58,782 nt of DNA from Thermoproteota archaeon (GTDB lineage Archaea; Asgardarchaeota; Jordiarchaeia; Jordiarchaeales; Freyrarchaeaceae), in the NCBI GenBank assembly GCA_029258835.1, contig JAPDJY010000036.1, positions 1 through 58,782 on the forward strand. The letters are read 5' to 3'. A model generated the notes under the pieces. That model worked only from the letters and a program-made list of their open reading frames with translations. It was not told the DNA's origin and did no database searches. A program made the position numbers and the translations under genes. Shown in pieces: positions 6,804 to 57,000 of this stretch (its first letter is position 1; every line of letters starts with the position of its first letter).

Positions 6804-6822
6804 AAAAGTAGGCTATCAGAGG

Positions 6823-7305: not shown

Positions 7306-7544
7306 TCACTAAGAGCTAAATCCACACGGCTCGCCACCCTTGCAGCACACATCCCTTCTCTCATCTCTCACATCCATATAAAAACCTGATGAATTAAAAA
7401 TTTTAAAGTATTCCCAGCATTCCTCCATAAAGTCTTTCCCTTTTCGAAGAAAGAAAAAGCCCTATAAGTAAAAAGTAAAACCTTGCTACGAAATCTAGAG
7501 GCAACCTAGAAAAACATCCAACAATATCATCGAAAAAGGAAAAA

Positions 7545-20801: not shown

Positions 20802-22301
20802 TTAAAGTTTAGCGTTAACGTCGAGGATGTGCTTGTATTCGAAGTTGATTAGTGCTAGTCGCTCCTGCCTCCAGTCCCTTGCGTTTTTTCCACCCCATAC
20901 GCCTTTAAGCTTATATGGGGGAATTGATATTTCCCCGAGAACCGTGGAGAGATAGTAGAGGAGGTCTCTCGCATCATCCCATCTCCCGACGTATGATTCC
21001 TGTTGCTGGGGGTGTTCGAGCTTTACGGGGATCACTCCCTGCTTAACGTAGTTCTCCATTGCTATGAAGGCTGCGTCATCCGTGGTGAAAACTATGGTGT
21101 CTCCCTTCTCTGCCGCGAAGCTCTTGTAGTCTAGGGCGATCTTCTCATCCCCGCTCTTGCCCGAGGCGTCCGAGCTGGCTACCTCATAGTTACGCTTGTT
21201 GAGCGTTTGCAGCTCTCCTTGAGCTATCATGAACAGCCTGGCTTTAGGTGTTAACTGGTTGGAGTACTCTCCCAGTTTGGGGTCGAATGGAAGCTTCTGG
21301 TTTACGTTCCTCGACACCTCCCTGAGAACCTCGTCGGAGACTGTGAAGTTTAGGCTTAGCATTTCAGCCTTTCTCTGAGCGTACTCTCGCTCCAAGAGCT
21401 CCATGAGCTTTGATGGGGCTCTGAAGATCAGGGAGTTCGTGTCGAATCCCACGTAGACCGTACGCCCTCCACCTGTAACCCTGTCCAAAACCTCCTTGAA
21501 GGCTTCCTCCTCGTTGGCGAAGCGCGCCATCCCTGAAGCCAGAACAACCTCCCTTATAAGGGAGGAGTCTCCGTGAGCCTCGTCGAAGAACGATCCAAGG
21601 TGGGGCTTAAAGAGTGCCTCGTTCTTTTTGAGTTTAAGGGAGAGGCGGCCGATAACCTGGTTTTTAACCTTCAAATCGTGAACCAGCTTATTGTCAAGGT
21701 AGAGGGAGTTTAAGACGCACATTACGTCCCTCCTGGTTATGAATACCTTCCCGCGTTCCCCCTTGGCGCGTTCTCCTGAGAGGGGTGGCGTGGATTTAAA
21801 CAGGGATTTCAGGTCGATCAGCTTTTGAAGGGAGAAGGGGATGTGGAAAAGGAAATTGTTCATGTAGCTTAGGTCTCTTAGTAGAAGGTAGACTACGTGG
21901 TCGGCGTACGTCATCCCGGCTGCGAGGAGAAGGGAGGACATGAACTTGCGTCCAGGAGTTATGTCTACGACGATACGGCCTTTCTTCTCCGCGTTGAGGC
22001 TTTTCAGAAGCTGCCCCACCTTACTTCTAAACTCCTCTATGTCCTCCTCGTAAACTCTAACGCTCTCGTCAGCCACGACCTCAACACTTTTACCGTAGTA
22101 CCTCGAGAGGGCGTCGACAAGCTCCTTGACGGTTTCAAGCTGTCTGGCAACCCCCTCATTCCAGATCAGATATACTCTGTCGGGTACGAAGCCATACGCC
22201 TCGGCAACATACCATATAACGTTGAAAACCGCCTGAGGAGAAATACTAACAGAAGTAACCCAAACGTCCACGTTGAACCCTCCAGCAACAAGAGCTGCCA
22301 C
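20802..22301 (-). CDS. CARF-PIN fusion (CRISPR ancillary protein)
   Basis: N-terminal VWVTSVSISPQAVFN...IVVDITPGRKFMS (CARF motifs); C-terminal VGFDTNSL, VLREV, GDEKI, FTTDD (PIN acidic residues); true start may be near 22270. Confidence 0.8.
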   Translation of the reverse strand: MAALVAGGFNVDVWVTSVSISPQAVFNVIWYVAEAYGFVPDRVYLIWNEGVARQLETVKELVDALSRYYGKSVEVVADESVRVYEEDIEEFRSKVGQLLKSLNAEKKGRIVVDITPGRKFMSSLLLAAGMTYADHVVYLLLRDLSYMNNFLFHIPFSLQKLIDLKSLFKSTPPLSGERAKGERGKVFITRRDVMCVLNSLYLDNKLVHDLKVKNQVIGRLSLKLKKNEALFKPHLGSFFDEAHGDSSLIREVVLASGMARFANEEEAFKEVLDRVTGGGRTVYVGFDTNSLIFRAPSKLMELLEREYAQRKAEMLSLNFTVSDEVLREVSRNVNQKLPFDPKLGEYSNQLTPKARLFMIAQGELQTLNKRNYEVASSDASGKSGDEKIALDYKSFAAEKGDTIVFTTDDAAFIAMENYVKQGVIPVKLEHPQQQESYVGRWDDARDLLYYLSTVLGEISIPPYKLKGVWGGKNARDWRQERLALINFEYKHILDVNAKL

Positions 22302-22748
22302 GCAGATCCCTTAGGAGAAAGGCTTCCAGGAGACGCCACCCCAATCAGAGCCACAAGCATAAACGTAAGGAGGGGGGAAGGAAGGGTTCAAACACCTAGG
22401 AGCCAAACAACACAAACATTAAACCCATTACCCTTATGCTCGCGAGGAAGGGAAAAAGCTTACGGTTCCACCAGTAGGCGAAAGTAGGATCCACGCGCCT
22501 ATCAGTTAAATCCGAGCTCATCGAGGCGCCGCCAACGGCGACGTCTCCCGGAGTGAAGAACCCACCAAGCTGCCAAGTGAAGGCTGGTGGTAAAGCGGTC
22601 AGAGCATGAGGCGGCGAAAGGTTAAAACCCTTTTAAAGGGCAGCGAGCTGTTAAACGCTTCAAGCGGAGTGAGCTGCTTGTAGGCTTGTAGGCTTGTAGG
22701 AGGGGTGGCGAAGCCGTTTTGGAGTGGGAGCTCCTCCGTTCCGAGGGT

Positions 22749-23636
22749 TTAAGGTCTCAACCTACCTGAGCCCGCTCTCCTTAGCGGTCTATGACCACCT
22801 TGCAGGACGTACTTTTCACCTATCATTTCCAAGACTTTTTTCAATGTTTTCCTGGGACTGTAGCGTTTGACCACCGTGCTGTTGAGCTTCATGCACGCCC
22901 CATCCATCGAAGTAAAATAGTATTCGTCTTCTACGTCAACGCGCCTCTTATACAGGGGCTTCACTTCAACCTTGTAAAGGCTCGTCCTCCTCCTGACTAT
23001 GGCGTACTTCAGGTCCTCCGTTATCCAGCAGAGGTCGCTCTCAACCTCTCGAACCCACCCCTTCCCCTTAACGGTTTGAAACCACTTGACGCCCTTAACG
23101 GGGAAAGCAGCCTCCACCACGCTTTCACCGTCGAGGAGAGCTGATTCGTCACCGTAATCGACCACAACTTTTCTAACCACGCCGTCAGCCACGTTCAGAA
23201 GGTACACCACCCTCCCCGTTGGGAGCTCCGCCACCCTCCTCTCAATCATCCTCTCTATGGCGTCCCTGGCCTCAGCCACCTTCAAGGCTTCAAGGCGAAG
23301 ACGCTCATAGTTTGTGAGGACCATGGGGGGAGAAAGATCGATCTGGAAGTGGCGCCTGTAGCTCGACTCCACCTTGTAAATCGCCCGCGACCCCTTAAGC
23401 ACCCTATCACGAAAAGTAATCCTAGCCCTCCGGTAATTGTTTATCGCTCTGATAATCACCTTTTTAGCAGCCCTGTAACACCTACCCCAAGTATAAACCT
23501 TCCCGATCTCATGCACCCCACCACACATAGCGCACTTAAACGGGATGCCGAGCGCAAGCTTAACAAGCTCCTCCTCAGGGTCATAATGCTCCCCGGCACC
23601 CCTCACCGGGGAAACCCTACTAGTGCAGGAACGCAA
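22749..23636 (-). CDS. Uncharacterised protein with N-terminal CxxC-x3-H..C putative Zn finger (paralog A)
   Basis: YDPEEELVKLALGIPFKCAMCGGVH..WGRCY and VESDLCWITEDLKYAIVRR shared with the neighbouring ORF. Confidence 0.8.
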   Translation of the reverse strand: MRSCTSRVSPVRGAGEHYDPEEELVKLALGIPFKCAMCGGVHEIGKVYTWGRCYRAAKKVIIRAINNYRRARITFRDRVLKGSRAIYKVESSYRRHFQIDLSPPMVLTNYERLRLEALKVAEARDAIERMIERRVAELPTGRVVYLLNVADGVVRKVVVDYGDESALLDGESVVEAAFPVKGVKWFQTVKGKGWVREVESDLCWITEDLKYAIVRRRTSLYKVEVKPLYKRRVDVEDEYYFTSMDGACMKLNSTVVKRYSPRKTLKKVLEMIGEKYVLQGGHRPLRRAGSGRLRP

Positions 23637-23748
23637 CAGGAAACCCTCCCACTACCATAGAAAAAGGCCGGGAACACGCAATGAAGGAAGCGAACACAGG
23701 CTAATAACCAAAACTTTTTGCAACAATCACAGGGCTGGAAGGGGGGAG

Positions 23749-24825
23749 CTAGTTGGTGCAGCGCCCACCATTCTTCAAGGAGCACTCTGCAAGCTGCTCT
23801 AAAGGCGTACTCATAGCCTCCCTAGGAGACAGGTTCAACCTGACGGGGGTTCCACCTCTAGGAACAAGGAAAAACTCTCTCTTGAAGCCGGAAGCCGGCA
23901 GGAACGTCACTCTTTCCACCAGAGCGCAGCTCAGGTCGCTTAAAACACCGCAAAGCTTACTCTCAACCACACGCGTCCCAGCACGACGAGGCATAAAAAG
24001 CTCATTTCCCAAATGTCTTCTTAAATATCTTATGACTGAATAGATGCTGGGAGTGTGGAGGTGAGGGGGGTCATCGATAGGGTTATCGTAATCAACGATG
24101 AATCTAGCGAGGGGGTAGATGTCACTGTAGCGGGGTAAGGGTTTGAAGAAGAACTCCCTATCGACTCTATGCCCGAAAAGGTACATGATCGCCAGGTCGT
24201 AGCGGTAGCGGTTTCCACTAGAAACATACAAGTAGTCTATGTGGCCATCCCAGCCTCTTTTGACGTATTCTAGGTGTACGGGGGGAAGCTTCCTGACGGC
24301 GTCCTCCGCCACCTCAATCTCCGCTCTGGAAACCTCCTCGCACCTCTCAGCAACCTTGAGGCAGTAGTCTAGCATTGTGACCATTTTCTTCGGGTTGGAG
24401 AGGAGGTCGCCTATGACGGGGACTCTTGTTTTTACGTAGCGTTTGAAGACGCGGATAACGGGTGAAATCCCCTTCAGCAAGACGTCGGCGATGCTGAGCC
24501 TGATGGCGGAGAGATACTTCAAGTAAAAGTCGATTGGCGCCACCAGAAAGCTCACCGGAAACTTAGAAACGGAGGAGGCAAACGCGTAGTGGATCTGATG
24601 GAGCTGACGCAGCACCGCGCGACTCTTACAGGAAAAGTGGAAAGCCTTTCTAACCAGCTTATGGGCTTTAGCGTAGCACCTCAGCCAAGCATTCTTGGAA
24701 GGAACATGCCTACGGCCGCAAACAGCACACCTAAACGGTGAACCAAACACCAGGGCAATATACTCTACCTCGGGGTCATAACCCCTCACGCCTTCACCCA
24801 CACCCACCACATCGCCCCCATGCAA
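23749..24825 (-). CDS. Uncharacterised protein with N-terminal CxxC-x3-H..C putative Zn finger (paralog B)
   Basis: YDPEVEYIALVFGSPFRCAVCGRRH..WLRCY and VESKLCGVLSDLSCALVER. Confidence 0.8.
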   Translation of the reverse strand: MHGGDVVGVGEGVRGYDPEVEYIALVFGSPFRCAVCGRRHVPSKNAWLRCYAKAHKLVRKAFHFSCKSRAVLRQLHQIHYAFASSVSKFPVSFLVAPIDFYLKYLSAIRLSIADVLLKGISPVIRVFKRYVKTRVPVIGDLLSNPKKMVTMLDYCLKVAERCEEVSRAEIEVAEDAVRKLPPVHLEYVKRGWDGHIDYLYVSSGNRYRYDLAIMYLFGHRVDREFFFKPLPRYSDIYPLARFIVDYDNPIDDPPHLHTPSIYSVIRYLRRHLGNELFMPRRAGTRVVESKLCGVLSDLSCALVERVTFLPASGFKREFFLVPRGGTPVRLNLSPREAMSTPLEQLAECSLKNGGRCTN

Positions 24826-24998
24826 TTTCTCCAGCCAGCCTGGGTGCGGGCGGGGAAGCGGACGCCGTCAGCCCGGGCAGCTGTAGGGCGGCTGAAGGCG
24901 CGTCCACGAGGCACATGGAAGGGTTTGGAGGCAAGGACGGCGACTCCATCCACCACGTAACCCTCCCTTCGGAGGACGGGTTCAATCCTCAGCTCCAA
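24786..24998 (-). CDS. Possible 70-aa small protein between the vWA gene and paralog B
   Basis: TTG start overlapping the end of the vWA gene; LELRIEPVLRREGYVVDGVAVLASKPFHVPRG...; fills the operon gap. Confidence 0.3.
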   Translation of the reverse strand: MELRIEPVLRREGYVVDGVAVLASKPFHVPRGRAFSRPTAARADGVRFPARTQAGWRNCMGAMWWVWVKA

Positions 24999-26385
24999 TT
25001 TCAATTTTGATTTTCTCAACCCCGGAGACCTCGGGGAACATGCAGGTTGAGCAGTAGATAACCTTGCTAGCCCTCCACTTGACCTTTCTAAGCCACGCCT
25101 CCTGCTCGTCCACGTCCGCAACAGCCCCGTCAGTTAACACCACAACCACATCCCCCTTCCTCACCTTACTATACACCTTCATCAAGGCAGGTGAGATCAC
25201 CGTTCCACCCCCACCCTTCACCCTCGGCACCATTCCAGGCTTAACCCGGCACTCGCGCCTCACCCCATCATCGAAGAACACGGCGAAAACCCTCACAAGC
25301 CTCGCTGCGGCGAACAGCTCCGCGAAGAACTGGTCTATTTCCCTCTGCCCGATGCTGCCACTCACATCCACGACCGCGTAGATGTCAGGCTTCTTAAAGC
25401 GGTAGACCCCAGGGTACGATGGATGCTTACGTGAGGGCTTACGCCAGGTGGAAACCACGCTCAACCCCAGCCCATGCCTAACCATACTCCTCAGCTCAGC
25501 CCTCCAGTTAACCTTAGGCTTAATAGCCTGGGAGAGGACGAGTTCAGCGGTCCCCCTACCCGCCCCAGCCATCTTCAACATGACTATGGCTTTACGGACA
25601 GCATTCGTCAGCCCCACCTCCCCCTCCTCATACATCTCCCGATCCCCCTCCTGAACAACGTAACCGTCCAAGTCTCCGCTCACAACACCCTCAACAAGGT
25701 CCCCCTCCCTGTAAAAGCTACAGACATTGCTATGAGGGCAGATTGGACTGCTCGTGGAGGAGCATGCCGCACCGCCACCATGGTAAACGCTCCTGGGGTC
25801 GCCGCCCCCTTCAACTCCGGTCACGCCGTGAGCATTCTTCGAGAAGGGGTTTATGGGGCAGCTTCCCGGCGAGCACCCCGCAGACTTAAACAGCTTCATG
25901 AGAAGGACGTAAAGCTCCTCAGCCGACATGCTGAGCAGATCACTAGGGTTGATCCACCGGTGAAGGCTCACTCTAAACGAGAGAGGAAGGTCGTGGAGAG
26001 GGGAGGATGAAGCCACGTGGAAGCCTTCAGAGGATAGTATTTCGTTAACTATGCAGTCGCAGGCGAGATTATAGAGAACAGGGCACTCCACTCTTTTAAC
26101 CCTTAAATGATGCTTCAAAGCCACATGCAGAACCTCGTGGAAAATGGTGAAAACCTTCTCGTCTGCACTCATCCCCCGCCATTGGGAAAGGTCAATGTAG
26201 ATTACGCCGCCGCGAACCATCGCTGGGACAGGAAGCCCCTCCCTGGCGACCACCCTAAGCCTCTTAAGGATCAAGGCAAGCCAGGGAGCCCTAGCCATAA
26301 ACGCCGTCTCAATGTGCTTCAAGTCACGGGCAACACCGCTTACAACCCTCTTAACATCGCCACCCAACCTAAACCCCCCAATCAA
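24982..26385 (-). CDS. Zincin-like metallopeptidase + vWA domain protein (DUF2201/COG3864 type)
   Basis: HEVLH..LKH and NLACDCIVN in the N-terminus; VNWRAELR, TWRKPSRK; MIDAS DVSGS, GGGGT, LTDG. Confidence 0.9.
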   Translation of the reverse strand: MIGGFRLGGDVKRVVSGVARDLKHIETAFMARAPWLALILKRLRVVAREGLPVPAMVRGGVIYIDLSQWRGMSADEKVFTIFHEVLHVALKHHLRVKRVECPVLYNLACDCIVNEILSSEGFHVASSSPLHDLPLSFRVSLHRWINPSDLLSMSAEELYVLLMKLFKSAGCSPGSCPINPFSKNAHGVTGVEGGGDPRSVYHGGGAACSSTSSPICPHSNVCSFYREGDLVEGVVSGDLDGYVVQEGDREMYEEGEVGLTNAVRKAIVMLKMAGAGRGTAELVLSQAIKPKVNWRAELRSMVRHGLGLSVVSTWRKPSRKHPSYPGVYRFKKPDIYAVVDVSGSIGQREIDQFFAELFAAARLVRVFAVFFDDGVRRECRVKPGMVPRVKGGGGTVISPALMKVYSKVRKGDVVVVLTDGAVADVDEQEAWLRKVKWRASKVIYCSTCMFPEVSGVEKIKIEIGAED

Positions 26386-27604
26386 CGCTCCTAGCGATCA
26401 GGTTTCCAGCCTCCCGGAAAACTGGGAAGAAGGTCTCCCTGTCAGACTTAACCAGCACTCTGAAGAAGTCTCCCTTAACCTCCTCCCTCAAGGAGGAAAA
26501 CACGAACATGAGCATCTCACGGTGCCGCGTCAGGTGCCTGAGCAAGGGGAGGGCGGCTCGAACCCTCTCACCCACCCTTCTACTAAGCCACTCAGCGAAC
26601 ATCACGGAGAAAATGTACTTCTGGTCGATGCTGAAGCCGTCGAACAGCTCAGGGTTCCTGACGACCTCAGCCACGCTGGGAGTCGGGTTGCCGATGAAAG
26701 TTAGAAACTTATCGGCGACCTCCTCGCCAAGCAACCCCCTGCACAGCGCGGCCACAGCCTCCCCGTCAGCACCACCCCTGCAGCCGTGCTTCCCCCTCCT
26801 CCTTCCTTTCCCGCCATGCGGGTTCAACCCGTCACCCCGGCTGATCGAGGGGAGCATGCATGCAAGCTTCGTCCAGGACCTGGGAGTAGGAAAGTTCTCC
26901 AACGTCTCGGCGGCATCCAGCGGCGGGCGGATAAAGTCGTCCGGGAACCTTCCCAGGTAAGCAGCCACCCTCCTATCCCACTCACCATAAACCGCATTCA
27001 TGTAGCTTATCCACTCGTCAAGCCTTGGCGCGTCAAAGTCGACACGTATCAGCCGGTTCATCAGGGGGGCGGGGAGCAAACGTGAGATGACGCTGTCCTC
27101 GGGGCGGTTCCCCGCCGCAACCACCCACACCCCCGGGTGAAACCTCACCTCCCCAGCCTTCCCGTCGAGCAGCTTGTAGGCGACAGCTATCACGTCTTCC
27201 CTCTGAACGTTCGTCAACTCGTCGAGAAACAGCACGCCGGGGTGCCGGCTGAACAGGACCGCCCACTTCGGAGGCTTATACACCATGTACCCGTTCTCCT
27301 CGCGTGGAACACCGATCAGCTCGCTGGGTTCCACCTCGGTCAGCCGGAGGTCGTAGAAGAGGAACACGTCGCCCTCAACGTCCCTCCCATCATACTCCAC
27401 GAGCTCAAGCCTCATCCCCTCAGCGAGGAGATCCGCCACCCTCCTAACGGTCTCGCTCTTCCCCACCCCCGGCGGACCGAGGAGGAGGACGGGGTGAGGG
27501 TAATACTTAATGATCCACTCCTTCCTGATCCTAACACGGGTGGAACTTTTATTTTTCCTTTCATTTATTAAAACATCAACACGCATTTTAATATCAACCC
27601 CCAT
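26369..27604 (-). CDS. MoxR-like AAA+ ATPase
   Basis: GPPGVGKS Walker A, ELIGVP, LFLDEL Walker B, VAAGN, LPAPLMNR, FPTPRSW. Confidence 0.92.
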   Translation of the reverse strand: MGVDIKMRVDVLINERKNKSSTRVRIRKEWIIKYYPHPVLLLGPPGVGKSETVRRVADLLAEGMRLELVEYDGRDVEGDVFLFYDLRLTEVEPSELIGVPREENGYMVYKPPKWAVLFSRHPGVLFLDELTNVQREDVIAVAYKLLDGKAGEVRFHPGVWVVAAGNRPEDSVISRLLPAPLMNRLIRVDFDAPRLDEWISYMNAVYGEWDRRVAAYLGRFPDDFIRPPLDAAETLENFPTPRSWTKLACMLPSISRGDGLNPHGGKGRRRGKHGCRGGADGEAVAALCRGLLGEEVADKFLTFIGNPTPSVAEVVRNPELFDGFSIDQKYIFSVMFAEWLSRRVGERVRAALPLLRHLTRHREMLMFVFSSLREEVKGDFFRVLVKSDRETFFPVFREAGNLIARSVDWGV

Positions 27605-27635
27605 CTTATTTTTTTAATAAACACTTCTTGAAACG

Positions 27636-27760
27636 TGGGGGGAGCGGGCTGACCATCACGGTTAAAATGCGTCAAAGAAGAGAAGGAGCGATAAGCCTCG
27701 TCGGCGGGATCAGGTATCAGAGGACATGCTGATGAGCGTGCGGCTTACCTGTTCCCCCCA
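27636..27760 (+). other. 125-nt GC-rich element closed by a 13-bp stem (possible ncRNA or MITE relic)
   Basis: TGGGGGGAGCGGG (27636-27648) pairs with CCTGTTCCCCCCA (27748-27760), including two G.U pairs; AT-rich flanks. Confidence 0.35.
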
Positions 27761-27793
27761 TTAAATAATATGTGTTTCATCATTTATATATTT

Positions 27794-27935
27794 TTTCATT
27801 TCTAAGAAATTGTTTTGAAATAAAATAGATTGTTTTAGTTTATTAATACATTGCTTTGTTTTTTCTTTTTTGGGAAAATGTTTTAAACATTTCCAGACAA
27901 TATTATTTTAGAGGTAATGTTTCAACAATATGAAA
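27794..27935. promoter_or_regulatory. Divergent promoter region with several palindromes (candidate Csa3 operators)
   Basis: ATTTCT-A-AGAAAT 27798-27810; AAATGTTT-T-AAACATTT 27876-27892; TTTCA-N6-TGAAA 27920-27935. Confidence 0.4.
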
Positions 27936-28589
27936 TGCAGGTGGCTGGACGTGAACCTCGTAGTCACGCTGGGATTCGAGGAAAAGTACGCCCTCAGAGC
28001 CCTAATGAGGAGCAGCCTAGGGAGGGGAGACCGCTTCATAATAATCCTGCCAGACGACAAACACCCCAGAAGGGAGAAAGCCTACAACTTCATCGTCGAG
28101 GAGATAGTTAAAAAGGTATTCCCCGAGTTGGAAGTGGAGAGAGTGGAGGTTAACGTGAGAGACTTCTACGGGGCGATCCACAGGATAAGAGAGCTCCTGA
28201 AGGGGTTGAAGGGGAAAATAGTGTTGAACGTCAGCGGGGGGCTCAAGATCCTCATCCTCGAAGTGCTGGCGGCAGCATCCAGCCTGGGCTTAGAGGACGC
28301 CGAGGTGGAAATAGAAGACATAGACAGCGAGGACATAGACGTAAGGGAGGCACCCTTCGTGAGAGCACCCTTAAAGGTCATGTACCCCGTAAAGCTAGAT
28401 GACAGCGACCTTGAAATCCTCAGGAAAGCCCGGGAGAAGGGGGAGCTGACGCTCAAGGAGGCAACGGAGGAGTTCGGGGCCCCCAAGGCCACCCTGTGGA
28501 GAAGGCTCAACCGCCTGGTCGAGCACGGACTCCTCGAGAAAGCAGACGACACCTACCACCTAAGCGAGCTGGGGCGCTCCAGAATATAA
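27930..28589 (+). CDS. csa3: Csa3 CARF-wHTH transcriptional regulator
   Basis: VTLGFEEKYALRAL, LNVSGGLKILILE (CARF); C-terminal wHTH PKATLWRRLNRLVEHGLLEK..Y.LSELG. Confidence 0.92.
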   Translation: MKCRWLDVNLVVTLGFEEKYALRALMRSSLGRGDRFIIILPDDKHPRREKAYNFIVEEIVKKVFPELEVERVEVNVRDFYGAIHRIRELLKGLKGKIVLNVSGGLKILILEVLAAASSLGLEDAEVEIEDIDSEDIDVREAPFVRAPLKVMYPVKLDDSDLEILRKAREKGELTLKEATEEFGAPKATLWRRLNRLVEHGLLEKADDTYHLSELGRSRI

Positions 28590-29058
28590 GCACGAGGAAG
28601 CTTCCAGCAGCGTCGACGGCGCAGTAGCCCACCACGCGTGCGTGAACCACGGTAGCTGACGGCTTCCCGACGGCCCCCGGCTCCACCACCATGACCGCTA
28701 AACCCGGACAGGGCGTAGAGTGCCGATCCGAGGCAGCCGCCAGCATCCGGCTCCATCCACATTGAGAGTTCAAGATTTGCCCACGCCACAACTTACCCTT
28801 CCGGCTTCGAGCTGGCACCATGGTGCAGGGTGAGGTTAGACGCTGGAGGAGGAGTTTACTTCGGCGGTTTAACATAAGACGGTGAAGGTATTTAAACGAT
28901 TATAAATGCAACATGCGGCCGGCGGCAACACCGTAGCTTTAGAAGCGGCTGTTTAGGGTTTGCTACCGCGTTGGAGGTGTAGATTGGACGGTGCGCAAGG
29001 CGGGTGATGGTTAGAGGGTTTGGGTGAGAGGGGTTAGGCGGCGTCGCATTCGGGTCTT

Positions 29059-29446
29059 TCAGTAGGTTACACGGGTGGATTTAACGGTTTCCTCCGGGGT
29101 GGGTTTGAGCTTAATGGGGAGGCGCCTCTTGGGGCAAGGTATAATTCTCTCCGTGTCTGTTTTGCACGTTTCACCACTCTCTCCACTAGAGCATAGTCTA
29201 GGTTGTTTGAGACAGTGCAAAGCTTCTTTCGACTTCCACCTCGTCGTGGTTGAAGAAAAACCCCCTTTTGACCCTGTGTCCGAAGAAACATGTGGTTGCC
29301 AGACTGTAGCGGTAACGGTCACAACTTGAGACGTACAAGTAGTCTACGTAACCACCCCACTTCTTTCGGCGTATTTCATGCGTACCGAGGAGCTTCCTGA
29401 CGGCATCCTTCACCACCTCGATCTCCGCCCCCGGCAACCCCCTCAC
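29059..29446 (-). pseudogene. Decayed third copy of the Zn-finger paralog family (closest to paralog B)
   Basis: AEIEVVKDAVRKL..WGGYVDYLYVSSCDRYRY..FGHRVKRGFFF and KLCTVSNNLDYALVERV..LAPRG match 23749..24825 across a frameshift. Confidence 0.85.
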
Positions 29447-29659
29447 ACCCTCAGCAACAAATAAGACACAACCAAGACATAACGCTATTATAAAATATTA
29501 ATTTAACATTATTGATTATTGATATTGTCGTGGTAGCCTGCTTTGCTGTGTCTTGGTTCTGAATTGCACTTGTTCATTTACTGGCTGAATGTTATTTAGG
29601 GTTCTGTTTGGTGGAGGGAACTTCTTTTATCTGGGTGTTTCATTTATGATTTATGGGGG

Positions 29660-30172
29660 TTGCGGAGCTTGGTTAGAGTTGGCTTTGAGAACGTTAAAGA
29701 CGGGTTTTTCAGGAGGCTGCTCCAAGAGCTTGTGAGGCAGCTGTCCGAGGCTTTCGGAGGCAGCCTCGTATCCGTCGTCCTTTTCGGCAGTGTGGCGAGG
29801 GGGGAGGCTGGGGAGGAGAGCGACGTGGACGTGATAGTGGTCTGCGAGGACTTCCCTGAAGGGATATCTGGCAGGGTTGACATGCTTCTCCCGGTGCTGG
29901 ACGAGGTTTACGCGAGAGTGGAGGGGAGAAAGCCGTTCATCCAGTTCCACCCGTTGAGGCCGGATGAGGCTTCGAAGTCCAGGCCAATATATCTTGACGT
30001 CTTGGAGGACGGGGTGATCCTGTATGATAAAGGGGGGTTCATTTTGAGGGTTCTGGGAAGGATGGAGAGGAAGCTCAGGGAGCTCGGGGCGAGGAGGGTT
30101 CACTTGAAGGATGGAAGCTGGATTTGGGTGCTTAAGCCGGGGATGAGGCTGGGAGAGGTTATCAGGCTTTAA
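29660..30172 (+). CDS. MNT antitoxin
   Basis: LFGSVARGEAGEESDVDVIVV, LDVLEDGVILYD, WIWVLKP. Confidence 0.9.
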   Translation: MRSLVRVGFENVKDGFFRRLLQELVRQLSEAFGGSLVSVVLFGSVARGEAGEESDVDVIVVCEDFPEGISGRVDMLLPVLDEVYARVEGRKPFIQFHPLRPDEASKSRPIYLDVLEDGVILYDKGGFILRVLGRMERKLRELGARRVHLKDGSWIWVLKPGMRLGEVIRL

Positions 30173-30183
30173 ACACATACGAG

Positions 30184-30614
30184 ATGGCTAAGGCCTACAT
30201 TGGAGACGCAGGTATCTCCCTCAGAGAGGCAAGGACAGCTTCGAGAACGGCGCCTACCACAGGGCTGTCAGGAGGGCTCAGGAGTGCGTGGAGCTATCGC
30301 TTAAAGGGGTTTTAAGGCTCTTCGGGATCGAATACCCTAAAAGCCACGACGTCTCCAGCGCACTAGATGAGGCTGAAGCACACGTCAACACCCCCAAATG
30401 GTTCAAGGAGGAGAAAGAGGAGTTAAAAAGGGCGAGCAGAAGGCTGGCCCAGGAGAGAGCGCTAGCATTCTATGGAGACGAACGCGCCTTCATCCCCCCA
30501 GAGAAAATCTACTCGGAAAAGGACGCTGAAGAAGCGATAAAAATGGCTGAGAAGTGCCTCCAAGCTGCAAGACGCCTCCTAGCAGAGCACGAGGAAAAAA
30601 TGAAGCAAGGGTAA
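30184..30614 (+). pseudogene. HEPN toxin with an N-terminal frameshift
   Basis: MAKAYIGDA..REARTA shifts frame into FENGAYHRAVRRAQECVELSLKG..KSHDV..ERALAFYGDE. Confidence 0.8.
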
Positions 30615-31026: not shown

Positions 31027-31352
31027 GTGCACGTGATCCTCATAGCCACTTCGGATTCGGCGAAACGCCTGAGAACTCTCCTGAGAGCCGGCCTCAAAAG
31101 GAAAACGACAAGCTCATAGTCATCCTCCCATCCGAAAGGAGGCTAAGGGGGAAAGCATCCATCAAAAAGCCTGGTTGAAAACCATTCCCAGATTTAGGAG
31201 TGGAGAGGTTTGAAGCCGACGTAAGAGGATTCTACAGAGCAAACGCCAGAATAAGAAAGCTACTAAAAGACGGGAAAGACGGAAAAAATAACCCTAAACA
31301 TAAGCGGAGGATACAAAACTGGCCACAGAGCTCCTGCCGGCTGCGGTCCATG
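31027..31352 (+). pseudogene. csa3: Decayed second csa3 (CARF part)
   Basis: Fragments VILIAT/GFGE, NDKLIVILP, PDLGVERFEADVRGFYRANARIRKLLK and ITLNISGG align with 27930..28589 across frameshifts. Confidence 0.75.
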
Positions 31353-31564: not shown

Positions 31565-33799
31565 TTGGGTGGTGGCTTGACGGGGGATTCTTCGCTGGGG
31601 GATGCTATCGACTCTGTTGAGGCGGTGCTGGAGCGTAAGCTTGTCGCGACGGTGAAGGACTCCAAGTATTACCTTGCTGATACGAGGATACCTGGGGTTC
31701 TCCTGTATGATCATCTCTCTTTAACCGCCGGGATAACTGTGGCAATGGTTAAGGAGCTACTTAATAGAGGGCTTAACGCTTCAGACATCTGCGGTGTTCA
31801 GGTTGAAATTGATGAGAGAGGGCTTGTTAAACTGGCAAGGATCTTGGGGCTATGCCACGATGTCGGCAAGGTTTTAGGGGAGAAAACCGAGTACCGCCTA
31901 CACGTTGAGAGAGGGGTCGCATACATTAAGGGATTGCTAGACGAGCTTAACCCTCCAGAGAAATTAGTGGATTTAATCGTAGAGGCCTTGAACCGGCATC
32001 ATTTGGATAGGAATCCGAAGAGTGTTCTTGAAAAGGTTTTATGCCTCGCTGACAGCTATGCTTCGGCGGGGGATAGACCGGAGCTATCCAAGGCCATGAC
32101 AAGGGAGGAGTTTGAGAGGGTTATTAGCTCAACGGTTAAGCTTGAAAAAGAGCTTTTCGGCGAGGATAAACCAGTCAGGCTGATTCTAGGGGACGTTGAC
32201 AGGATTAAATCCTACGTGTTCGAAACCAGCAAGATTCCAGAGATAAGAGGAGGAAGCCAGATCCTAGTTGAGCTGGAAAAGGGGATCAGGAGGCTTTTCT
32301 GCAGCGAGCTGTGCGAGGAGGCACTTATCTATTGTGGTGGGGGAAGCTTCCTAGCAGTTGTTCCTGCAAGCGAGGCTGAGCGCTTGGGGAGGATCATAGA
32401 GGAGTCCTACTTGGAGAGGACAGGGGTTGCAACTATAACTGTTGTCTGCTCCGAGCCGCTTGGATATGAGAACTTCGCTCGCGGAGTAGAACCCTACGAT
32501 GATGAAAGCGTGTCCAAGATTGTTAAAGAGGTAAAGGATGGTGTAGCGGGGGATCTCGTCAAAAGCCATTTCTCCGTTTCAGAAGGGAGGAAAGGGTTCG
32601 GCGAGCTCGTTGCATCCCTCTCATCCGAGCTACGCTTGAAGAAGAAGATGAAGGAGCATGCCCCGTTCATACCCTCCATGCCGTTCCATAGACGCTGCGA
32701 CTCGTGCGGTAAAAGGCCGGCTGAAACCACACACGAGGAAAGCTACAGAGGGTTGAAAGAAGTGTTCTGGCTGTGCGGTATATGTAAAGCCAAAAGGAAG
32801 GAAGGGGAGGCGAGGGAGAAGCTGAGGTTCGCGGAGGAATTCACCAAATGGTACAATAGCTATAAGGGGAGGAAGAGCTCTATAAAAGTTCCCTTCACAT
32901 CCTTGGACGAGCTGGCTACACTCGATCCAAAGGGGAGAATCGCCTTCCTGTACGCTGACGGGAATGATATAGGGGATTTGCTTCAGAGAGCCAGAACCCC
33001 CGCCCAGTACCGCCACATATCGCAAACCCTAGAGGAAGCGATGAAAAATGCGTTGTTCAAGGCTATAATTGACGTCATGGGGGAGAAGGTGGAAAAGAAG
33101 GAAGTGCCGTTTGAAGTCATCGCCCTGGGAGGGGACGACGCAAGCGTCATACTTCCTGCACGCTACAGCTGGGATGTAGCAGTTAAACTAATGGAGGAAG
33201 CGGAGGAGCAGATGAGGGCGCTCGGCGAGGAGTTGAATCATCCCTTAACAGTATCTGTAGGGTTGCTCATAGCGGACGTGAAGTACCCCGTTCAGTTGAT
33301 GGAGAAGCTGGCGGAGGACTTGCTGAGGGAAGCTAAGAAGCGTAGTAGGAGCGGGGAGCGGAGGGAGAGCGCAATATGCCACCTCTGGCTGCGAAACCCC
33401 CTGCTAGCCGAGAGCGCTAAGGACATCATAGACAGGACGTACACGGTGAGGGTTCACGGTAAAACAGCGCGTTTAACCGGCAGACCCTACACTCTCAGCG
33501 AAGCCAAGACCCTAACCGAAATAGCCGATAGTTTAAGCGTGCCGGCGACGCAGCTAAGGGTCATGGCCGAGTCCTTAAGTAAGGGAGTTAGGTTTTCAGA
33601 GAACCTTGTCCTGTATCAAATCGCAAGAATGGATGACCTGGCAAATATGGAGAAGGCTCTCAGAAGAATGGGAGGGCTGCTGAGGGAGGAGGCGGCTACG
33701 TTTTGGGTGGTGGATGCAGATGGCGTCTACGGTGAGCGAGGAGGCTACGTCACCCCACTACTCGACGTGATAGAGCTTGTGGAGTTAAGGGGTGGTTGA
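31565..33799 (+). CDS. cas10: Cas10 (type III) with HD nuclease and GGDD palm domain
   Basis: LYDHLSLTA, HDVGK, GDVDRIKSYVF..IRGGS, CDSCG..CGIC Zn finger, YADGNDIG, GGDD. Confidence 0.95.
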   Translation: MGGGLTGDSSLGDAIDSVEAVLERKLVATVKDSKYYLADTRIPGVLLYDHLSLTAGITVAMVKELLNRGLNASDICGVQVEIDERGLVKLARILGLCHDVGKVLGEKTEYRLHVERGVAYIKGLLDELNPPEKLVDLIVEALNRHHLDRNPKSVLEKVLCLADSYASAGDRPELSKAMTREEFERVISSTVKLEKELFGEDKPVRLILGDVDRIKSYVFETSKIPEIRGGSQILVELEKGIRRLFCSELCEEALIYCGGGSFLAVVPASEAERLGRIIEESYLERTGVATITVVCSEPLGYENFARGVEPYDDESVSKIVKEVKDGVAGDLVKSHFSVSEGRKGFGELVASLSSELRLKKKMKEHAPFIPSMPFHRRCDSCGKRPAETTHEESYRGLKEVFWLCGICKAKRKEGEAREKLRFAEEFTKWYNSYKGRKSSIKVPFTSLDELATLDPKGRIAFLYADGNDIGDLLQRARTPAQYRHISQTLEEAMKNALFKAIIDVMGEKVEKKEVPFEVIALGGDDASVILPARYSWDVAVKLMEEAEEQMRALGEELNHPLTVSVGLLIADVKYPVQLMEKLAEDLLREAKKRSRSGERRESAICHLWLRNPLLAESAKDIIDRTYTVRVHGKTARLTGRPYTLSEAKTLTEIADSLSVPATQLRVMAESLSKGVRFSENLVLYQIARMDDLANMEKALRRMGGLLREEAATFWVVDADGVYGERGGYVTPLLDVIELVELRGG

Positions 33800-38155: not shown

Positions 38156-39109
38156 ATGTCGTCTAAACCCTTCACGTTCATCCCCATACCACGGGAGCCG
38201 CCCTCGAAATGGAAGATCACACCTCACATCGAATTCCAGCACTTAACAGGAAAGGTTGACCTTGAAGTGGAAGTCTCATCCGAATACCTCTTCGTCGGCT
38301 CAGGAAGCTACGAGTTCAACCCCAGACGCAGGCAGGGAGAAGCCGACGTCTGGCACGTCTTCCACCGCAGCAAAGGCACCATATGCATACCTGGAAGCAG
38401 CATAAAAGGAGCAGTCAGAACCCTAGTCGAAGCAATATCAAACTCGTGCGTTTCAACCCTAAAATCCAAAGAGAGAAAAGCAGTAGGGAAAAAGCACGCC
38501 AGATGCAATCCTGAAGAAGGAGAGCTATGCGTAGGGTGCAACCTTTTCGGAGCCGCAGGGTACAGAGGGCGCATCTCCTTCTCCGACGCCTTCCCCACCG
38601 GCGACGTAAAACTGGTCAAAGTAAAAATAGGGGAACTGTTCACCCCAAAAAGGTTCAAAGGACGCAAAATATATGAAAACAGAAGGTTCCAGCCCCTAGA
38701 CAGCCAGCACCCAGAAGCAAACCACCGCTTCGTCGAGGCAGCACCCAGAAACACCAAATTCAAAACAACACTACACTTCGAAAACGTCTCCGAAGAAGAA
38801 CTAGGAATAGTCTTCCACGCACTAGGCTGGAAAACCGAAGGAGACAAGGTAAACACCGCGTTCAGCATCAAGGTCGGCGGAGCAAAACCAAGATGCTTCG
38901 GAGCAGTCACCATCAAACCAGTAAAAGCCACCACCTGGAACATAAAAAACCTCAAACCATCACTAACAACATACACAGGGAAAAACCTCACACAGTTCAT
39001 CAAAGAATGCCTCTCCAAAGGAAAAAAACTCCTCCACGAAGACGCATACAACAAACTACTGGAAGCCCTAACCCCGAAAAGCCAGCCATGCCCAACGAGG
39101 GAATACTAA
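38156..39109 (+). CDS. Terminal Cas7-group RAMP of the type III-D-like operon
   Basis: KPFTFIP, IPGSSIKGAVR..EAISNSC, LCVGCNLFG, VGGAKPRCFG. Confidence 0.88.
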   Translation: MSSKPFTFIPIPREPPSKWKITPHIEFQHLTGKVDLEVEVSSEYLFVGSGSYEFNPRRRQGEADVWHVFHRSKGTICIPGSSIKGAVRTLVEAISNSCVSTLKSKERKAVGKKHARCNPEEGELCVGCNLFGAAGYRGRISFSDAFPTGDVKLVKVKIGELFTPKRFKGRKIYENRRFQPLDSQHPEANHRFVEAAPRNTKFKTTLHFENVSEEELGIVFHALGWKTEGDKVNTAFSIKVGGAKPRCFGAVTIKPVKATTWNIKNLKPSLTTYTGKNLTQFIKECLSKGKKLLHEDAYNKLLEALTPKSQPCPTREY

Positions 39110-39427
39110 ATGCCCGGGATAAGCGAAGACGAAAAAGTAAAACTTGCAGAAGAAATATCAAAGCAGCTCACCAACGTAGGGCGAACAGAGTGGAAAACAT
39201 GGGCAAACTACGCAGCCAGCAAAGGACTCGAAAAAGCACTAGAGTTCGCCCTCACCCTCTCAAGGTCACCAACCCTAAGACCAAGGCAAAAAAACGCATA
39301 CAAAACAATACACAACACCATGAAAAACTTCAAAAACAAAATAGAAAAACTCCCAGAAAAAAACCAGCAACAAGTACTAGGATACGTAGAAAGATGGATC
39401 ATAGCACGAAGAGCACACCCATTGTGA
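39110..39427 (+). CDS. Small helical protein, probable second Cas11-like subunit
   Basis: 105 aa, helical, starts directly after the upstream stop; QVLGYVERWI ending resembles small subunits. Confidence 0.55.
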   Translation: MPGISEDEKVKLAEEISKQLTNVGRTEWKTWANYAASKGLEKALEFALTLSRSPTLRPRQKNAYKTIHNTMKNFKNKIEKLPEKNQQQVLGYVERWIIARRAHPL

Positions 39428-40191
39428 AAAACAACCAACACCTAACCCAGAAAAACACCAGCTCAAAACCAATAGCAAAACACCAACCTCAGCCACAAAC
39501 CCACTGAACACCCAATAACCCGCTCATGATTTTTTTATAACCATGATTATAATAACAGCTATCATACAAACAGCTATTATACATAAACCTCGCAGAAACC
39601 TAACAGCCAAATAACGCAAATACTAACAAACACGAAAAGAACGAGGAAGACCACTACGATCGCCCAAACCCTCTCCGCCAACCAAACTCAACATAAAGCA
39701 AAAATAATAATAAAAACCTACGGCAAAACCCTCAATAATACAAAAACACTTTTCTGCAAAAAGAATTTCACTAAGTCCACCGAACAATCTCTTAATCACT
39801 TAGAGACCCTTACAACCGAGACAATTGATGAAACATATCATTCCTTTTTATTCGCTTTAACTTCTATGGTCTGATAATTCTCTTTTATATTTATATGTTT
39901 AAAAAATATTCAAAAAAAAAATCAAGACGGGGCAATCCATTTGATGAATTAAATTTTAAGCAAAAACATTCTTCCAAACCGGACCTTCCATCAAAAGAAA
40001 ATATTTCTAAAACAATTCATCCTTTCTCGTTTCCTTCAAACCAGCCTTCACATTCTTACCAACAAATTTTATTTTATTTAATTTTTATTCTTTCTTTAAT
40101 GACTTTTAAGAATCTTTCACTAAAAATCTCTTTTTGATAAAAAGTAGTCATCTCATTATTCAGTAAATGGAAAAATATTACGAGAAAAACC

Positions 40192-41121: not shown

Positions 41122-41275
41122 TTTTTACCCCACACAGACCATAGCTTCTTTATGTAGTAGCTCAAGTTTTGCTTTTATCGTCGATAATAGAATGATTATT
41201 TTAAAACTGAAAAATTTCTCATTTTTATCTGGAAAATAAATTGGTCTAATGACTTGCTTTGGTTTTAACATTTTA

Positions 41276-54000: not shown

Positions 54001-57000
54001 AGACATGGGGATTGAAAGCTTTGTTACTTGCCTACCATCGTATCATTCAAGACCTGACTTGCAAAAAGAGTCCCCAGACATGGGGATTGAAAGCGTCCTT
54101 TGTGAAGGTCAGCTTGAAGTTCTTGGAGGCTGACTTGCAAAAAGAGTCCCCAGACATGGGGATTGAAAGTAACTATACCCGTCTGACGGCATTATTTCAC
54201 ATCCATACTTGCAAAAAGAGTCCCCAGACATGGGGATTGAAAGATCACTTCTTCACCCGGAGGCTTCTCCTCCGACTCAACTTGCAAAAAGAGTCCCCAG
54301 ACATGGGGATTGAAAGACAATTTCCTCTCCCGGAGGCTTCTCCTCTATTTCCACCTTGCAAAAAGAGTCCCCAGACATGGGGATTGAAAGCCGGTCTCGT
54401 AGTCATACACTTGGTGACAGCCGTCTTCACTTGCAAAAAGAGTCCCCAGACATGGGGATTGAAAGCAGCAAGCACCGCAACACACACCAGCCCGTAAGCA
54501 ACAAGCTTGCAAAAAGAGTCCCCAGACATGGGGATTGAAAGAGGATGTTGTTGAAAGCGTTGAGCTTGTTGGGCCGGGGAACTTGCAAAAAGAGTCCCCA
54601 GACATGGGGATTGAAAGGTGAGGAGGAGGCTATCAGGCGTGCTGAGCTTATTCTTCTTGCAAAAAGAGTCCCCAGACATGGGGATTGAAAGATATGTAAC
54701 ACCAACCTCTCCTTGGGGAGGGTTGGCTTGCAAAAAGAGTCCCCAGACATGGGGATTGAAAGTTGAAAGCCCTGAGGAACGCGCCGAGCTTGCTGTTTGG
54801 CCTTGCAAAAAGAGTCCCCAGACATGGGGATTGAAAGACCTCTTTAAGAACCTCTAGCACTTCTTGCATCATTGCTTGCAAAAAGAGTCCCCAGACATGG
54901 GGATTGAAAGATGTCAATCCAACCCCATTTCCAAATCTTTTCTATGCCCCTTGCAAAAAGAGTCCCCAGACATGGGGATTGAAAGCCTCAAACCACACTA
55001 AAATTTCATGATCATTCTCATCGCTTGCAAAAAGAGTCCCCAGACATGGGGATTGAAAGAGTCCCTGGTGAAAAACTATGCCGCGAAGGAGTTTTTCCTT
55101 GCAAAAAGAGTCCCCAGACATGGGGATTGAAAGAGCATCCTGTTTTCACGGTCTGCGTCGGTAACGTTAGGCTTGCAAAAAGAGTCCCCAGACATGGGGA
55201 TTGAAAGCTCCTCTCTTCATCTTGTCTGTAGCAGCTTTGAGTGATCTTGCAAAAAGAGTCCCCAGACATGGGGATTGAAAGTTTTTTACTGTCACTTACT
55301 GAGTAAGCTGAAGTGTTTAACTTGCAAAAAGAGTCCCCAGACATGGGGATTGAAAGTTAAACCTTTTTCCGACATTCCAAGCCTTTACCCGGACTTGCAA
55401 AAAGAGTCCCCAGACATGGGGATTGAAAGTTGCAGACTGCGAATTTCGAAATGTAGGACTGTGCAATCTTGCAAAAAGAGTCCCCAGACATGGGGATTGA
55501 AAGCCATGCCCCTTGAACGGGCAGACGAAAAACAAATACAGCTTGCAAAAAGAGTCCCCAGACATGGGGATTGAAAGCTCCTAGTGCCTCAGAGCTCTCC
55601 TTCAAGATGGGATGGCTTGCAAAAAGAGTCCCCAGACATGGGGATTGAAAGCTGTCCCACACTAGGGGCTCCAAGTCCACGACTATGGACTTGCAAAAAG
55701 AGTCCCCAGACATGGGGATTGAAAGCTCCAATAAGGCATAATATCCAAGCTTCTAAGAAGTGTCTTGCAAAAAGAGTCCCCAGACATGGGGATTGAAAGC
55801 CCTAAGCTTCGACAGCCAGTCGGACACGCCGTCACACCTTGCAAAAAGAGTCCCCAGACATGGGGATTGAAAGATGAACCTCTGCTTCGCCTCGCTGAAC
55901 GCTACTGGCATACTTGCAAAAAGAGTCCCCAGACATGGGGATTGAAAGAGATCTCCTCCCGGATTTTTTCCTGCATACACTAGCATCTTGCAAAAAGAGT
56001 CCCCAGACATGGGGATTGAAAGATATCAGAATTATAGCCGAAGAACACTCTAACATCCGTCTTGCAAAAAGAGTCCCCAGACATGGGGATTGAAAGCTTG
56101 AAATGTTGCCTAGAAGAACTGCCTCTTGCTCATCCTTGCAAAAAGAGTCCCCAGACATGGGGATTGAAAGGTCACTCGGGTCGATGACGGGAAACCCCGG
56201 ATTTTCGACTTGCAAAAAGAGTCCCCAGACATGGGGATTGAAAGCTGCAGTCTCGCCGCGTTATCCGCATGAGACCCCCCATCTTGCAAAAAGAGTCCCC
56301 AGACATGGGGATTGAAAGCTATTGTGTTAACTCTCTCCCAACTTGCCCCGTTGTGCCTTGCAAAAAGAGTCCCCAGACATGGGGATTGAAAGTCATACTC
56401 GTCAAGCCCAAGCGCAACTTCCAGCTCGGCTTGCAAAAAGAGTCCCCAGACATGGGGATTGAAAGATTGACTGGTTCACCGCCTCAGTAGCCCTCTCCAC
56501 CACTTGCAAAAAGAGTCCCCAGACATGGGGATTGAAAGTTCTTGTGTTAATATATGCCAACCCCCCCTCGTCTATTCTTGCAAAAAGAGTCCCCAGACAT
56601 GGGGATTGAAAGTAGTACATCGTGTCGAGGTTAAAGCTGAAAGCATACGCTTGCAAAAAGAGTCCCCAGACATGGGGATTGAAAGAGCAACGGGTGCCAG
56701 CCCTGGATGAACCGCTCAACCTTCTTGCAAAAAGAGTCCCCAGACATGGGGATTGAAAGTCAAGCCTTGAGGACATAGCAGTCGTGGCGCATTAGCCTTG
56801 CAAAAAGAGTCCCCAGACATGGGGATTGAAAGGAAGACAGATGGAAATCCTCCTCAAACTCGGCCTGATAGCTTGCAAAAAGAGTCCCCAGACATGGGGA
56901 TTGAAAGTCCCATACTTCGGGGTGCTGAATCATGACTCCGACACGCCTTGCAAAAAGAGTCCCCAGACATGGGGATTGAAAGACACGACAGCCATCACCA

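Follow-up and report, generated by a model that had tools for sequence, protein, structure and literature searches.

Closest described systems

Few uncharacterised gene pairs are as common in phages and prokaryotic conflict islands as those made of a MoxR ATPase and a von Willebrand factor A (vWA) protein. MoxR-vWA pairs act as ATP-driven remodellers (PMC7159879). Ternary conflict systems are built on them (vWA-MoxR-VMAP, FtsH and beta-propeller types; Kaur et al. 2020, PMC7159879), and some vWA-MoxR loci have already been found to be linked to CRISPR (Altae-Tran et al. 2023, PMC10910872). Here, we describe a trio of genes, encoding a predicted ring ATPase, a predicted metallopeptidase fused to a vWA domain (zincin-vWA protein) and a zinc-knuckle protein of a new family, in the CRISPR-cas island of a Jordarchaeia (Asgard) archaeon. 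The DNA that was analysed, hereafter the window, is a stretch of 58,782 nucleotides (assembly GCA_029258835.1, contig JAPDJY010000036.1, positions 1 to 58,782), in which the zinc-knuckle gene is present as two paralogs and the operon is divergent from csa3 (Table 1). The reading that we favour, and to which we give about an even chance, is that this virus-derived trio is a resident, host-regulated and probably Csa3-controlled accessory cassette of the Jordarchaeia CRISPR-cas island; that it is specifically a defence arm responsive to cyclic oligoadenylates (cOA) is clearly less likely than that.

With the ternary and CRISPR-linked vWA-MoxR systems, the trio shares a MoxR ATPase, a vWA protein (sometimes peptidase-fused in those systems), a rapidly diversifying third component and an association with defence loci, type III CRISPR included. 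It departs from them in having a third component other than VMAP, a vWA protein that belongs to the DUF2201 zincin type, no CARF fusion, an Asgard archaeon as host and closest relatives that are viral. Since its zinc-knuckle proteins give no match in Pfam, VMAP models included, the trio is not a VMAP-type ternary system.

A closer likeness is found in phages, where an AAA ATPase and a metallopeptidase-vWA protein (phrog_1297 and phrog_1314) are encoded in the same order, ATPase then vWA, by adjacent or overlapping genes, with the HExxH motif and the metal-ion-dependent adhesion site (MIDAS) intact. By profile, the window enzymes are members of this phage AAA/DUF2201-vWA pair. What sets them apart is that they are chromosomal, lie inside a CRISPR-cas locus, have a csa3-like promoter and are always followed by a zinc-knuckle gene. 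We know of no characterised member of the DUF2201 zincin-vWA type, nor of any function for it, the phage pair included.

Other relatives are more distant. The trio's ATPase best matches midasin, and the model of its vWA protein, the MIDAS of which is complete, matches MDN1-MIDAS and NorD; however, there is no homology to midasin/Rea1, NorQ-NorD, RavA-ViaA or CbbQ-CbbO beyond these domains, the clients are unrelated and a zincin is fused here. Eukaryotic CLCA1, which carries a HExxH protease domain, combines a zincin with a VWA domain as the trio's vWA protein does, and its VWA domain is among the top structural matches. On the regulatory side, the cas operons of Sulfolobales that are controlled by Csa3a/Csa3b (adaptation and type I-A interference promoters) likewise have a divergent csa3 and a palindrome between back-to-back promoters, but here Csa3 would act on an ATPase-protease operon that is not made of cas genes.

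An initial sequence-only reading of the locus knew of no description of such a combination as a CRISPR accessory module. This has to be narrowed, because CRISPR-linked vWA-MoxR loci had already been reported (PMC10910872), but it survives for the trio proper: in the literature, we found no description of the trio, of the zinc-knuckle family or of an Asgard setting, no paper on DUF2201 with CRISPR, and no vWA/MoxR among archaeal type III accessory families. The portion of the supplements of Altae-Tran et al. (PMC10910872) that was covered holds no DUF2201 or PF13203 entry.

A three-gene cassette in CRISPR-cas loci

The order ATPase, vWA, zinc-knuckle is found in six Jordarchaeia-type lineages, admittedly a small sample of lineages related to one another, and in all six the genes are placed in CRISPR-cas loci. 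Four of these (G001/L011-14, G004, L015-17 and L084) have the trio convergent with a type I-A cassette (csaX-cas3''-cas3'-cas5-csa2-csa5), at a spacing from csaX of about 10-70 bp. The upstream neighbours of these csaX-adjacent trios are cas1/cas4, csa1 or other genes, and in G001 and G004 the trio is located between adaptation genes and type I-A interference genes. In the window and in GCA_029856455.1 (contigs L018 and L025, which would adjoin, judging from their contents), the operon is instead divergent from csa3.

The sequence-only reading had proposed a CRISPR/csa3 linkage, and had named as a refutation that homologues usually lack it. The neighbourhood survey bears both out in part. Close homologues are in cas loci in six of six lineages and csa3 is divergent in two genomes, but the other four lineages have the trio beside type I-A genes, with neither type III genes nor a divergent csa3 adjoining it; the distant homologues are viral or mobile-element cargo, which is why we regard the module as being of viral type. 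The neighbourhood criterion that has been used for CRISPR-accessory genes (Shmakov, Shah, Altae-Tran) likewise singles out the close clade and leaves aside the wider families, which are viral, bacterial or part of a haem operon. The linkage of the cassette to CRISPR-cas appears to be non-random.

The CRISPR-linked vWA proteins form one clade in a maximum-likelihood tree (support 100/99). In all 15 pairs in which both members are CRISPR-linked or both are viral, sequence identity ranks AAA above vWA above zinc-knuckle (65/55/42% between G001 and G004, 51/45/27% between the window and G001), and the nearest-neighbour relations of the three proteins are congruent. By these comparisons, the three genes are inherited as a unit.

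Two observations concern the genes around the trio. In the sister species G002, the slot between ABC/cobW/FeS genes and csaX (L082 6893-9395) is occupied by two genes, of 331 and 487 amino acids, which are without a Pfam match and may form another accessory cassette that uses this variable slot. In addition, a gene of the AF_1499 family (PF27259) is found directly upstream of the trio in one species (L011-L014 6409-7209) and, in G003 (L083 8238-9017), about 2.3 kb past csa3 on the far side of the type I-A cassette; it may be another island-linked gene.

Two conserved enzymes

The ATPase scores above the cut-offs of Pfam AAA and AAA_5 (PF07728, 30.5 bits against a cut-off of 22) and displays a Walker A motif (GPPGVGKS at residue 43), a Walker B motif (VLFLDE at 124) and a sensor-1 motif (AAGN at 163), its catalytic motifs being kept across eight AAA homologues. 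A profile built from eight orthologues has midasin as its best solved-structure match (E 1.2e-13), while bpMoxR matches are weak; by sequence, the protein is a member of the MoxR/midasin/dynein clade.

The zincin-vWA protein, the gene of which is adjacent to that of the ATPase in all host and viral loci examined, matches PF13203 (DUF2201_N; 81.4 bits, cut-off 23.2) and PF09967 (29.9 bits, cut-off 26.4). Its putative zincin motif is HEVLH at residue 83, and its MIDAS is made of DVSGS at 340, GGGT at 392 and TDG at 418. Among 43 vWA homologues, no variation is seen at H83, H87, D340, S342, S344, T395 and D419, and almost none at E84 and H92. For the zincin part, profile comparison brings up the minigluzincin MJ1213, though weakly (E 0.004). 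The structural model (pLDDT 78.6) has a vWA fold, with Foldseek matches at a probability of 1.00 to vWA domains, including those of CLCA1, MDN1-MIDAS, Ro60 and NorD.

As a peculiarity of the window's protein, a Cys/Gly/Ser-rich insert of about 60 residues (approximately 170-240) is present between the zincin and vWA domains; it is found in no orthologue and is modelled at a pLDDT below 50.

A new zinc-knuckle family

The third component is a new family with no known fold. Its paralogs have no match in Pfam (E 0.01), NCBIfam, PADLOC or PHROG. Each carries a CCHC knuckle (C-x2-C-x3-H-x9/10-C) after a DPExE motif, and the family alignment shows invariant E, F, C, C, G, H and C. The AlphaFold model of paralog B (pLDDT 79.7, pTM 0.70) consists of the knuckle, a helical bundle and a beta-rich C-terminal domain, and has no significant fold match in the PDB, BFVD, the ESM Atlas or a wide VIA-align search, the best hits being generic helical bundles (Z 5.1); a protein-atlas feature search gave a score of 0.77, which is below the usable level. 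The SWIM finger, with its CxCxnCxH signature, differs from the CxxC-x3-H-x9/10-C pattern seen here, and there is no SWIM match in Pfam, which was the basis of the comparison.

The two downstream proteins of the window are truly paralogous, as had been proposed (40% identity over the N-terminal 60 residues, E 2e-11; E 4e-6 for the C-terminal part), but they had been described as 'twin' Zn-finger proteins, which is wrong since there is a single CCHC knuckle in each.

The family is small. An exhaustive profile search of 1.84 billion representative proteins found 20 members, and among 400 Asgard species genomes it occurs only in the window's own family, in three of five genomes. A metagenome scan with the zinc-knuckle alignment recovered only a near-identical copy of the window and contig L020. 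There are no homologues among 50,697 phage records, and scans of IMG/VR with zinc-knuckle alignments gave pattern matches, none of which was confirmed; a query of the same database with the viral vWA protein returned one distant locus.

Viral relatives and a matching spacer

Phage families fit both enzymes (ATPase in phrog_1297, E 2.9e-48; vWA protein in phrog_1314, E 5.5e-46) much better than any cellular model does. N4-like, jumbo and Thermus phages are among the 818 phage records matched by the vWA protein of a related viral contig, and in phages with this type of vWA protein an AAA gene is found nearby, inside the replication region. Outside Jordarchaeia, a scan of genome contigs with the vWA alignment met nothing but remote DUF2201 genes of bacteria and, at a contig edge, a single Hadesarchaea locus.

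Distant zinc-knuckle genes are found in five virus-like contigs (L019, L020, L022, L023 and L024) consisting of small unknown genes in one direction, which also encode an integrase, a tail-fibre-like protein, a primase-helicase, a clamp loader and an intein. Two of these contigs have two zinc-knuckle paralogs each. A vWA gene is near the zinc-knuckle gene in three (L020, L022 and L024), two of which have the ATPase as well, and these viral vWA proteins form a clade far from the host clade in the tree. The association of zinc-knuckle and vWA genes would therefore seem to be old or to have formed twice; since it is also seen with such a distant vWA clade, the two proteins are probably functionally coupled.

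One spacer of the window's CRISPR array is identical, at 38 of 38 positions, to L019:3145-3182, in a 5.4-kb virus-like contig (GCA_964635355.1, CAZWOS010000045.1) with two zinc-knuckle homologues, and the match suggests that the host targets a mobile element carrying homologues of its own island genes. The protospacer ends 16 nt upstream of a zinc-knuckle gene, its crRNA would be complementary to the coding strand, and the three bases that precede it on the spacer-sense strand are TCC.

Two remote vWA homologues are found in other settings. In L085 (GCA_964596255.1, 4758-7678), a homologue of the zincin-vWA protein, 39% identical to it across half of the length, follows genes of 376 and 133 amino acids inside a haem/sirohaem biosynthesis operon (GlutR, ALAD, HemL and PBG deaminase), which hints that some members may serve cofactor insertion, like the chelatase-type MoxR-vWA pairs. 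In L086, an 81-kb contig, a 31%-identical homologue (5529-8095) with an ATPase-like gene upstream is found among genes for PCNA, DNA ligase, Ku and Orc1/Cdc6 that all run in one direction; this contig is probably a large archaeal virus or plasmid.

Promoter, palindromes and Csa3

The assignment of Csa3 is firm: it scores 83.5 bits against TIGR01884 (cut-off 60.2) and 89.9 bits against PF22662 (cut-off 27), is above the cut-off of HTH_24 and has a PADLOC Csa3 match at E 2e-40, and its CARF domain matches the Sulfolobus solfataricus Csa3 structures 2wte, 6w11 and 6wxq. The operon had been thought to share an AT-rich divergent promoter with csa3. The promoter and candidate operator elements are at 27780-27915, but the 325-bp gap is not uniformly AT-rich since 27605-27760 is GC-rich and probably represents a 5' leader. 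Long leaders are also present in G001 and L015. A structured or non-coding RNA in the leader was considered and rejected, because its folds are not significant (z-scores of 0.18 and 0.13) and there is no credible Rfam family.

The operon promoter, about 180 nt upstream of the ATPase start, is homologous across the trio lineages when these are lined up. In the 2.72-Mb genome, 27785-27808 is the sole site with five mismatches or fewer to the 24-mer of the G004 operon promoter (three mismatches), and the sole such site for the 24-mer of the G001 csa3 promoter (five mismatches). Within G001 (2.1 Mb), a 15-mer, TTCTATGAAAYGWAA, occurs at exactly two sites, one ahead of the AAA operon and the other ahead of csa3, with a chance probability of about 0.003 by a rough post-hoc estimate; its reversed control has 0 matches. 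The candidate operator ATTTCT-A-AGAAAT has the operon TATA box on one side and, on the other, what may be a distal TATA box of csa3 (27816-27829), and L018 has a perfect palindrome, TTTCTTTTAAAAGAAA, in an analogous position between csa3 and the operon. A putative inverted homologue of the G001 promoter at 27623-27650 was discarded, as the alignment did not hold.

Just downstream of csa3 in the window are a zinc-knuckle pseudogene (tblastn 56% identity over 73 residues, E 9e-19, and 38% identity, E 2e-9) and a csa3 fragment, which by sequence similarity are a second, dead copy of the divergent layout. The csa3 link thus appears to recur, in the second genome with a divergent csa3, in this decayed pair and in the 15-mer shared within G001. 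Because the operon promoter is back to back with csa3 around a palindrome and the two promoters share similarity, Csa3 is the most likely regulator, and its control of the operon is plausible.

What the cassette might be and do

If the trio is a resident accessory cassette, as we favour, the following scheme would apply. The cassette would have a conserved promoter of its own, placed back to back with csa3, and would be switched by Csa3, with a possible response, via the CARF domain of the latter, to the cyclic tetra-adenylate (cA4) made by the GGDD-intact Cas10. Csa3 of S. solfataricus reportedly recognises cA4. By analogy with midasin, NorQ/NorD and RavA/ViaA, the ATPase ring would supply mechanical work by pulling on a client protein, an acidic residue of which would be held by the vWA domain at its MIDAS, and the fused HExxH (zincin) domain might cleave the client or itself, or process a complex. 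The zinc-knuckle protein, being fast-evolving and often duplicated, would be either the specificity subunit or the client, and the MIDAS ligand might be the invariant Glu ahead of its knuckle. That the three proteins bind one another, act against viruses, are under Csa3 control and respond to cOA is what we infer.

Several findings weigh against this reading. (i) In four of six lineages the trio is beside type I-A genes, several kb from csa3. (ii) The sister species G002 keeps the type I-A cassette and csa3 without the trio, from which it follows that the cassette is dispensable for CRISPR function. (iii) The AAA-vWA pair is widespread in phages unrelated to CRISPR. (iv) There is no second copy of the promoter motif elsewhere in the 2.72-Mb genome. 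(v) Two degenerate positions of TTCTATGAAAYGWAA were written to fit both G001 sites, and part of it is generic sequence of the transcription factor B recognition element (BRE) and TATA box, so that its sharing is only suggestive. (vi) The palindrome core TTTC-N3-GAAA is not enriched (113 copies in the genome, five in the window) and was dropped as a regulon marker. (vii) Searches with Pfam and the PADLOC CARF models found no CARF, SAVED or other nucleotide-sensor domain in the AAA, vWA and zinc-knuckle proteins, so any type III cOA input must pass through Csa3.

The best surviving alternative, which we nevertheless consider unlikely, is a stand-alone MoxR-vWA ternary defence or conflict system, in which the zinc-knuckle protein would sense a viral component and the position in the island would reflect the clustering of defence genes, with no control by Csa3 or cOA. 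It would account well for the patchy presence of the trio (three of the five family genomes, and no other of the 400 Asgard species), for its variable slot beside csaX, filled in G002 by two other unknown genes, and for the HEPN-MNT toxin-antitoxin-like pairs nearby, and a fast-evolving, often duplicated third component is typical of recognition subunits in ternary systems (PMC7159879). It accounts poorly for the recurrent divergent pairing with csa3 and the csa3-like promoter, and for the fact that every placed lineage has the trio within a few kb of cas genes and not in other defence islands.

Less probable again is that the trio is selfish or viral cargo, possibly a counter-defence, that is, a remnant serving an element by replication-linked remodelling or anti-CRISPR activity and kept at an insertion hot spot or by selection to disable immunity. 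Much of the evidence on origin suits this explanation, namely the far better fit of both enzymes to phage than to cellular families, with the vWA type in 818 phage records, the presence of the pair in replication modules of viruses, and zinc-knuckle homologues in contigs with integrase, tail-fibre-like, primase and clamp-loader genes, one of which is targeted by the host array. The host loci themselves argue otherwise: in none of the six is the trio flanked by an integrase gene, att-like repeats or other viral genes, the surrounding CRISPR-cas genes are intact, the promoter is a conserved, host-type one related to that of csa3, and the host clade is monophyletic and old (vWA identity of 45-56% between genera) with all catalytic residues kept.

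Least probable is a role in maintaining the CRISPR machinery. The ATPase-protease would then assemble, recycle or remove complexes of Cas proteins (Cascade/Cas3 bound to DNA, Cas1-Cas2 once integration is over, or CARF effectors in their activated state), much as midasin strips assembly factors or signalling components are recycled. In favour of this role, the trio of G001 and G004 has adaptation genes on one side and those of type I-A interference on the other, csaX is within about 10-70 bp in four lineages, and the viral pair has genes of DNA replication and repair as neighbours, a hint that proteins bound to DNA are what it acts on. Against it, G002 has the same type I-A cassette without the trio, and 12 kb separate this cassette from the trio in the window.

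To return to a resident cassette, its boldest version, for which we see only a slim chance, is that the trio is an ATP-driven proteolytic arm switched by Csa3/cA4, in which the zinc-knuckle protein recognises viral or Cas clients, and that viruses of the same hosts carry homologous ATPase/vWA/zinc-knuckle sets with which they counter it in mirror image. Both sides would then be using one machinery, as for the viral ring nuclease AcrIII-1 and the host Crn2. More generally, should control by Csa3/cA4 be true, type III signalling would reach an ATP-dependent remodeller-protease, beyond nucleases and membrane effectors, and there would be an Asgard example of the immune recruitment of viral genes; should it be false, this would still be a documented case of viral genes settled in a variable slot of a CRISPR island. 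In either case, the locus offers handles on an uncharacterised pair: it is fixed in a CRISPR-cas island, with a candidate regulator (Csa3) and operator, a fast-evolving partner and a host spacer against an element that bears homologues.

Setting in the window

Table 1. Features of the window (58,782 nucleotides), with coordinates, strand and the evidence for each.
Feature	Coordinates	Strand	Evidence
CARF-PIN gene, candidate cOA-activated RNase (context)	20802..22301	-	PADLOC CARF_PIN, E 3.6e-144
Zinc-knuckle paralog B (295 amino acids)	22749..23636	-	paralogy to A
Zinc-knuckle paralog A (358 amino acids), new family	23749..24825	-	family alignment
Zincin-vWA gene (467 amino acids)	24982..26385	-	open reading frame listing, Pfam
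AAA+ ATPase gene (411 amino acids), first in operon	26369..27604	-	open reading frame listing, Pfam
GC-rich stretch from promoter to AAA start codon, probably 5' leader	27605..27760	-	sequence reading
Conserved operon promoter: BRE/TATA AAAAATATATA and upstream TTCTTAGAAATG element	27785..27808	-	cross-lineage promoter line-up
Palindrome ATTTCT-A-AGAAAT, candidate operator	27798..27810	.	sequence reading
Imperfect inverted repeat GGAAAATGTTTT/AAACATTTCC, just upstream of csa3-proximal TATA-like box	27873..27894	.	sequence reading alone
csa3 (CARF and wHTH regulator, 219 amino acids), divergent from operon	27930..28589	+	TIGR01884, Pfam Csa3_N, PADLOC Csa3
Zinc-knuckle pseudogene (paralog-A-like C-terminal half; frameshift and stop)	29046..29464	-	tblastn, profile match
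MNT-HEPN pair between two pseudogenes (MNT 29660-30172, HEPN 30288-30614)	29660..30614	+	Pfam NTP_transf_2, HEPN
csa3 pseudogene fragment, in-frame stop	31107..31317	+	tblastn 44% identity, E 1.5e-8; genome search E 3.2e-6, 1 TGA
cas10, HD and GGDD intact, heads type III-B cmr cassette reaching 39109	31565..33799	+	Pfam, NCBIfam, motifs
CRISPR spacer identical (38/38) to L019:3145-3182	55652..55689	+	blastn-short

The layout on which the sequence-only reading was built is confirmed. The four co-oriented genes and csa3 exist where they had been placed (open reading frame listing and profile searches), the MoxR ATPase gene does overlap the HExxH-peptidase-vWA gene, by 17 nt and with the motifs of both intact, and the location between a CARF-PIN gene and a GGDD-intact cas10 was upheld by PADLOC and by motif reading, with the HD motif of Cas10 present and its GGDD motif at residue 522. 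Beyond the type III-B genes, the window has a low-GC type I-A cassette with cas6 and cas4 at about 40-48 kb and a CRISPR array of 105 repeats at 51012-58770. The name that a homologue bears puts the organism in Candidatus Jordarchaeales, a group also filed as 'Freyarchaeota', and DNA of the window is present in hydrothermal-vent and sediment metagenomes.

The GC content of the type I-A/cas6/cas4 block (39000-48000) is 34-42%, against about 52% in the flanks, and this difference suggests that the interference module may have been recently acquired or replaced.

At the other end of the locus, a gene of the RNA-ligase family (PF09414; 19690-20724) is convergent with the CARF-PIN RNase gene. A ligase gene of the same family is again convergent with a CARF RNase gene in L010 (13957-16345), where the RNase is CARF-HEPN (Csm6; G001/L011), so that the pairing, seen in both genera with PIN in one and HEPN in the other, seems to outlast the swap of nuclease domain. 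Finally, the 447-bp gap that separates the last zinc-knuckle gene from the CARF-PIN gene contains three perfect tandem copies of GCTTGTAG (22676-22700).

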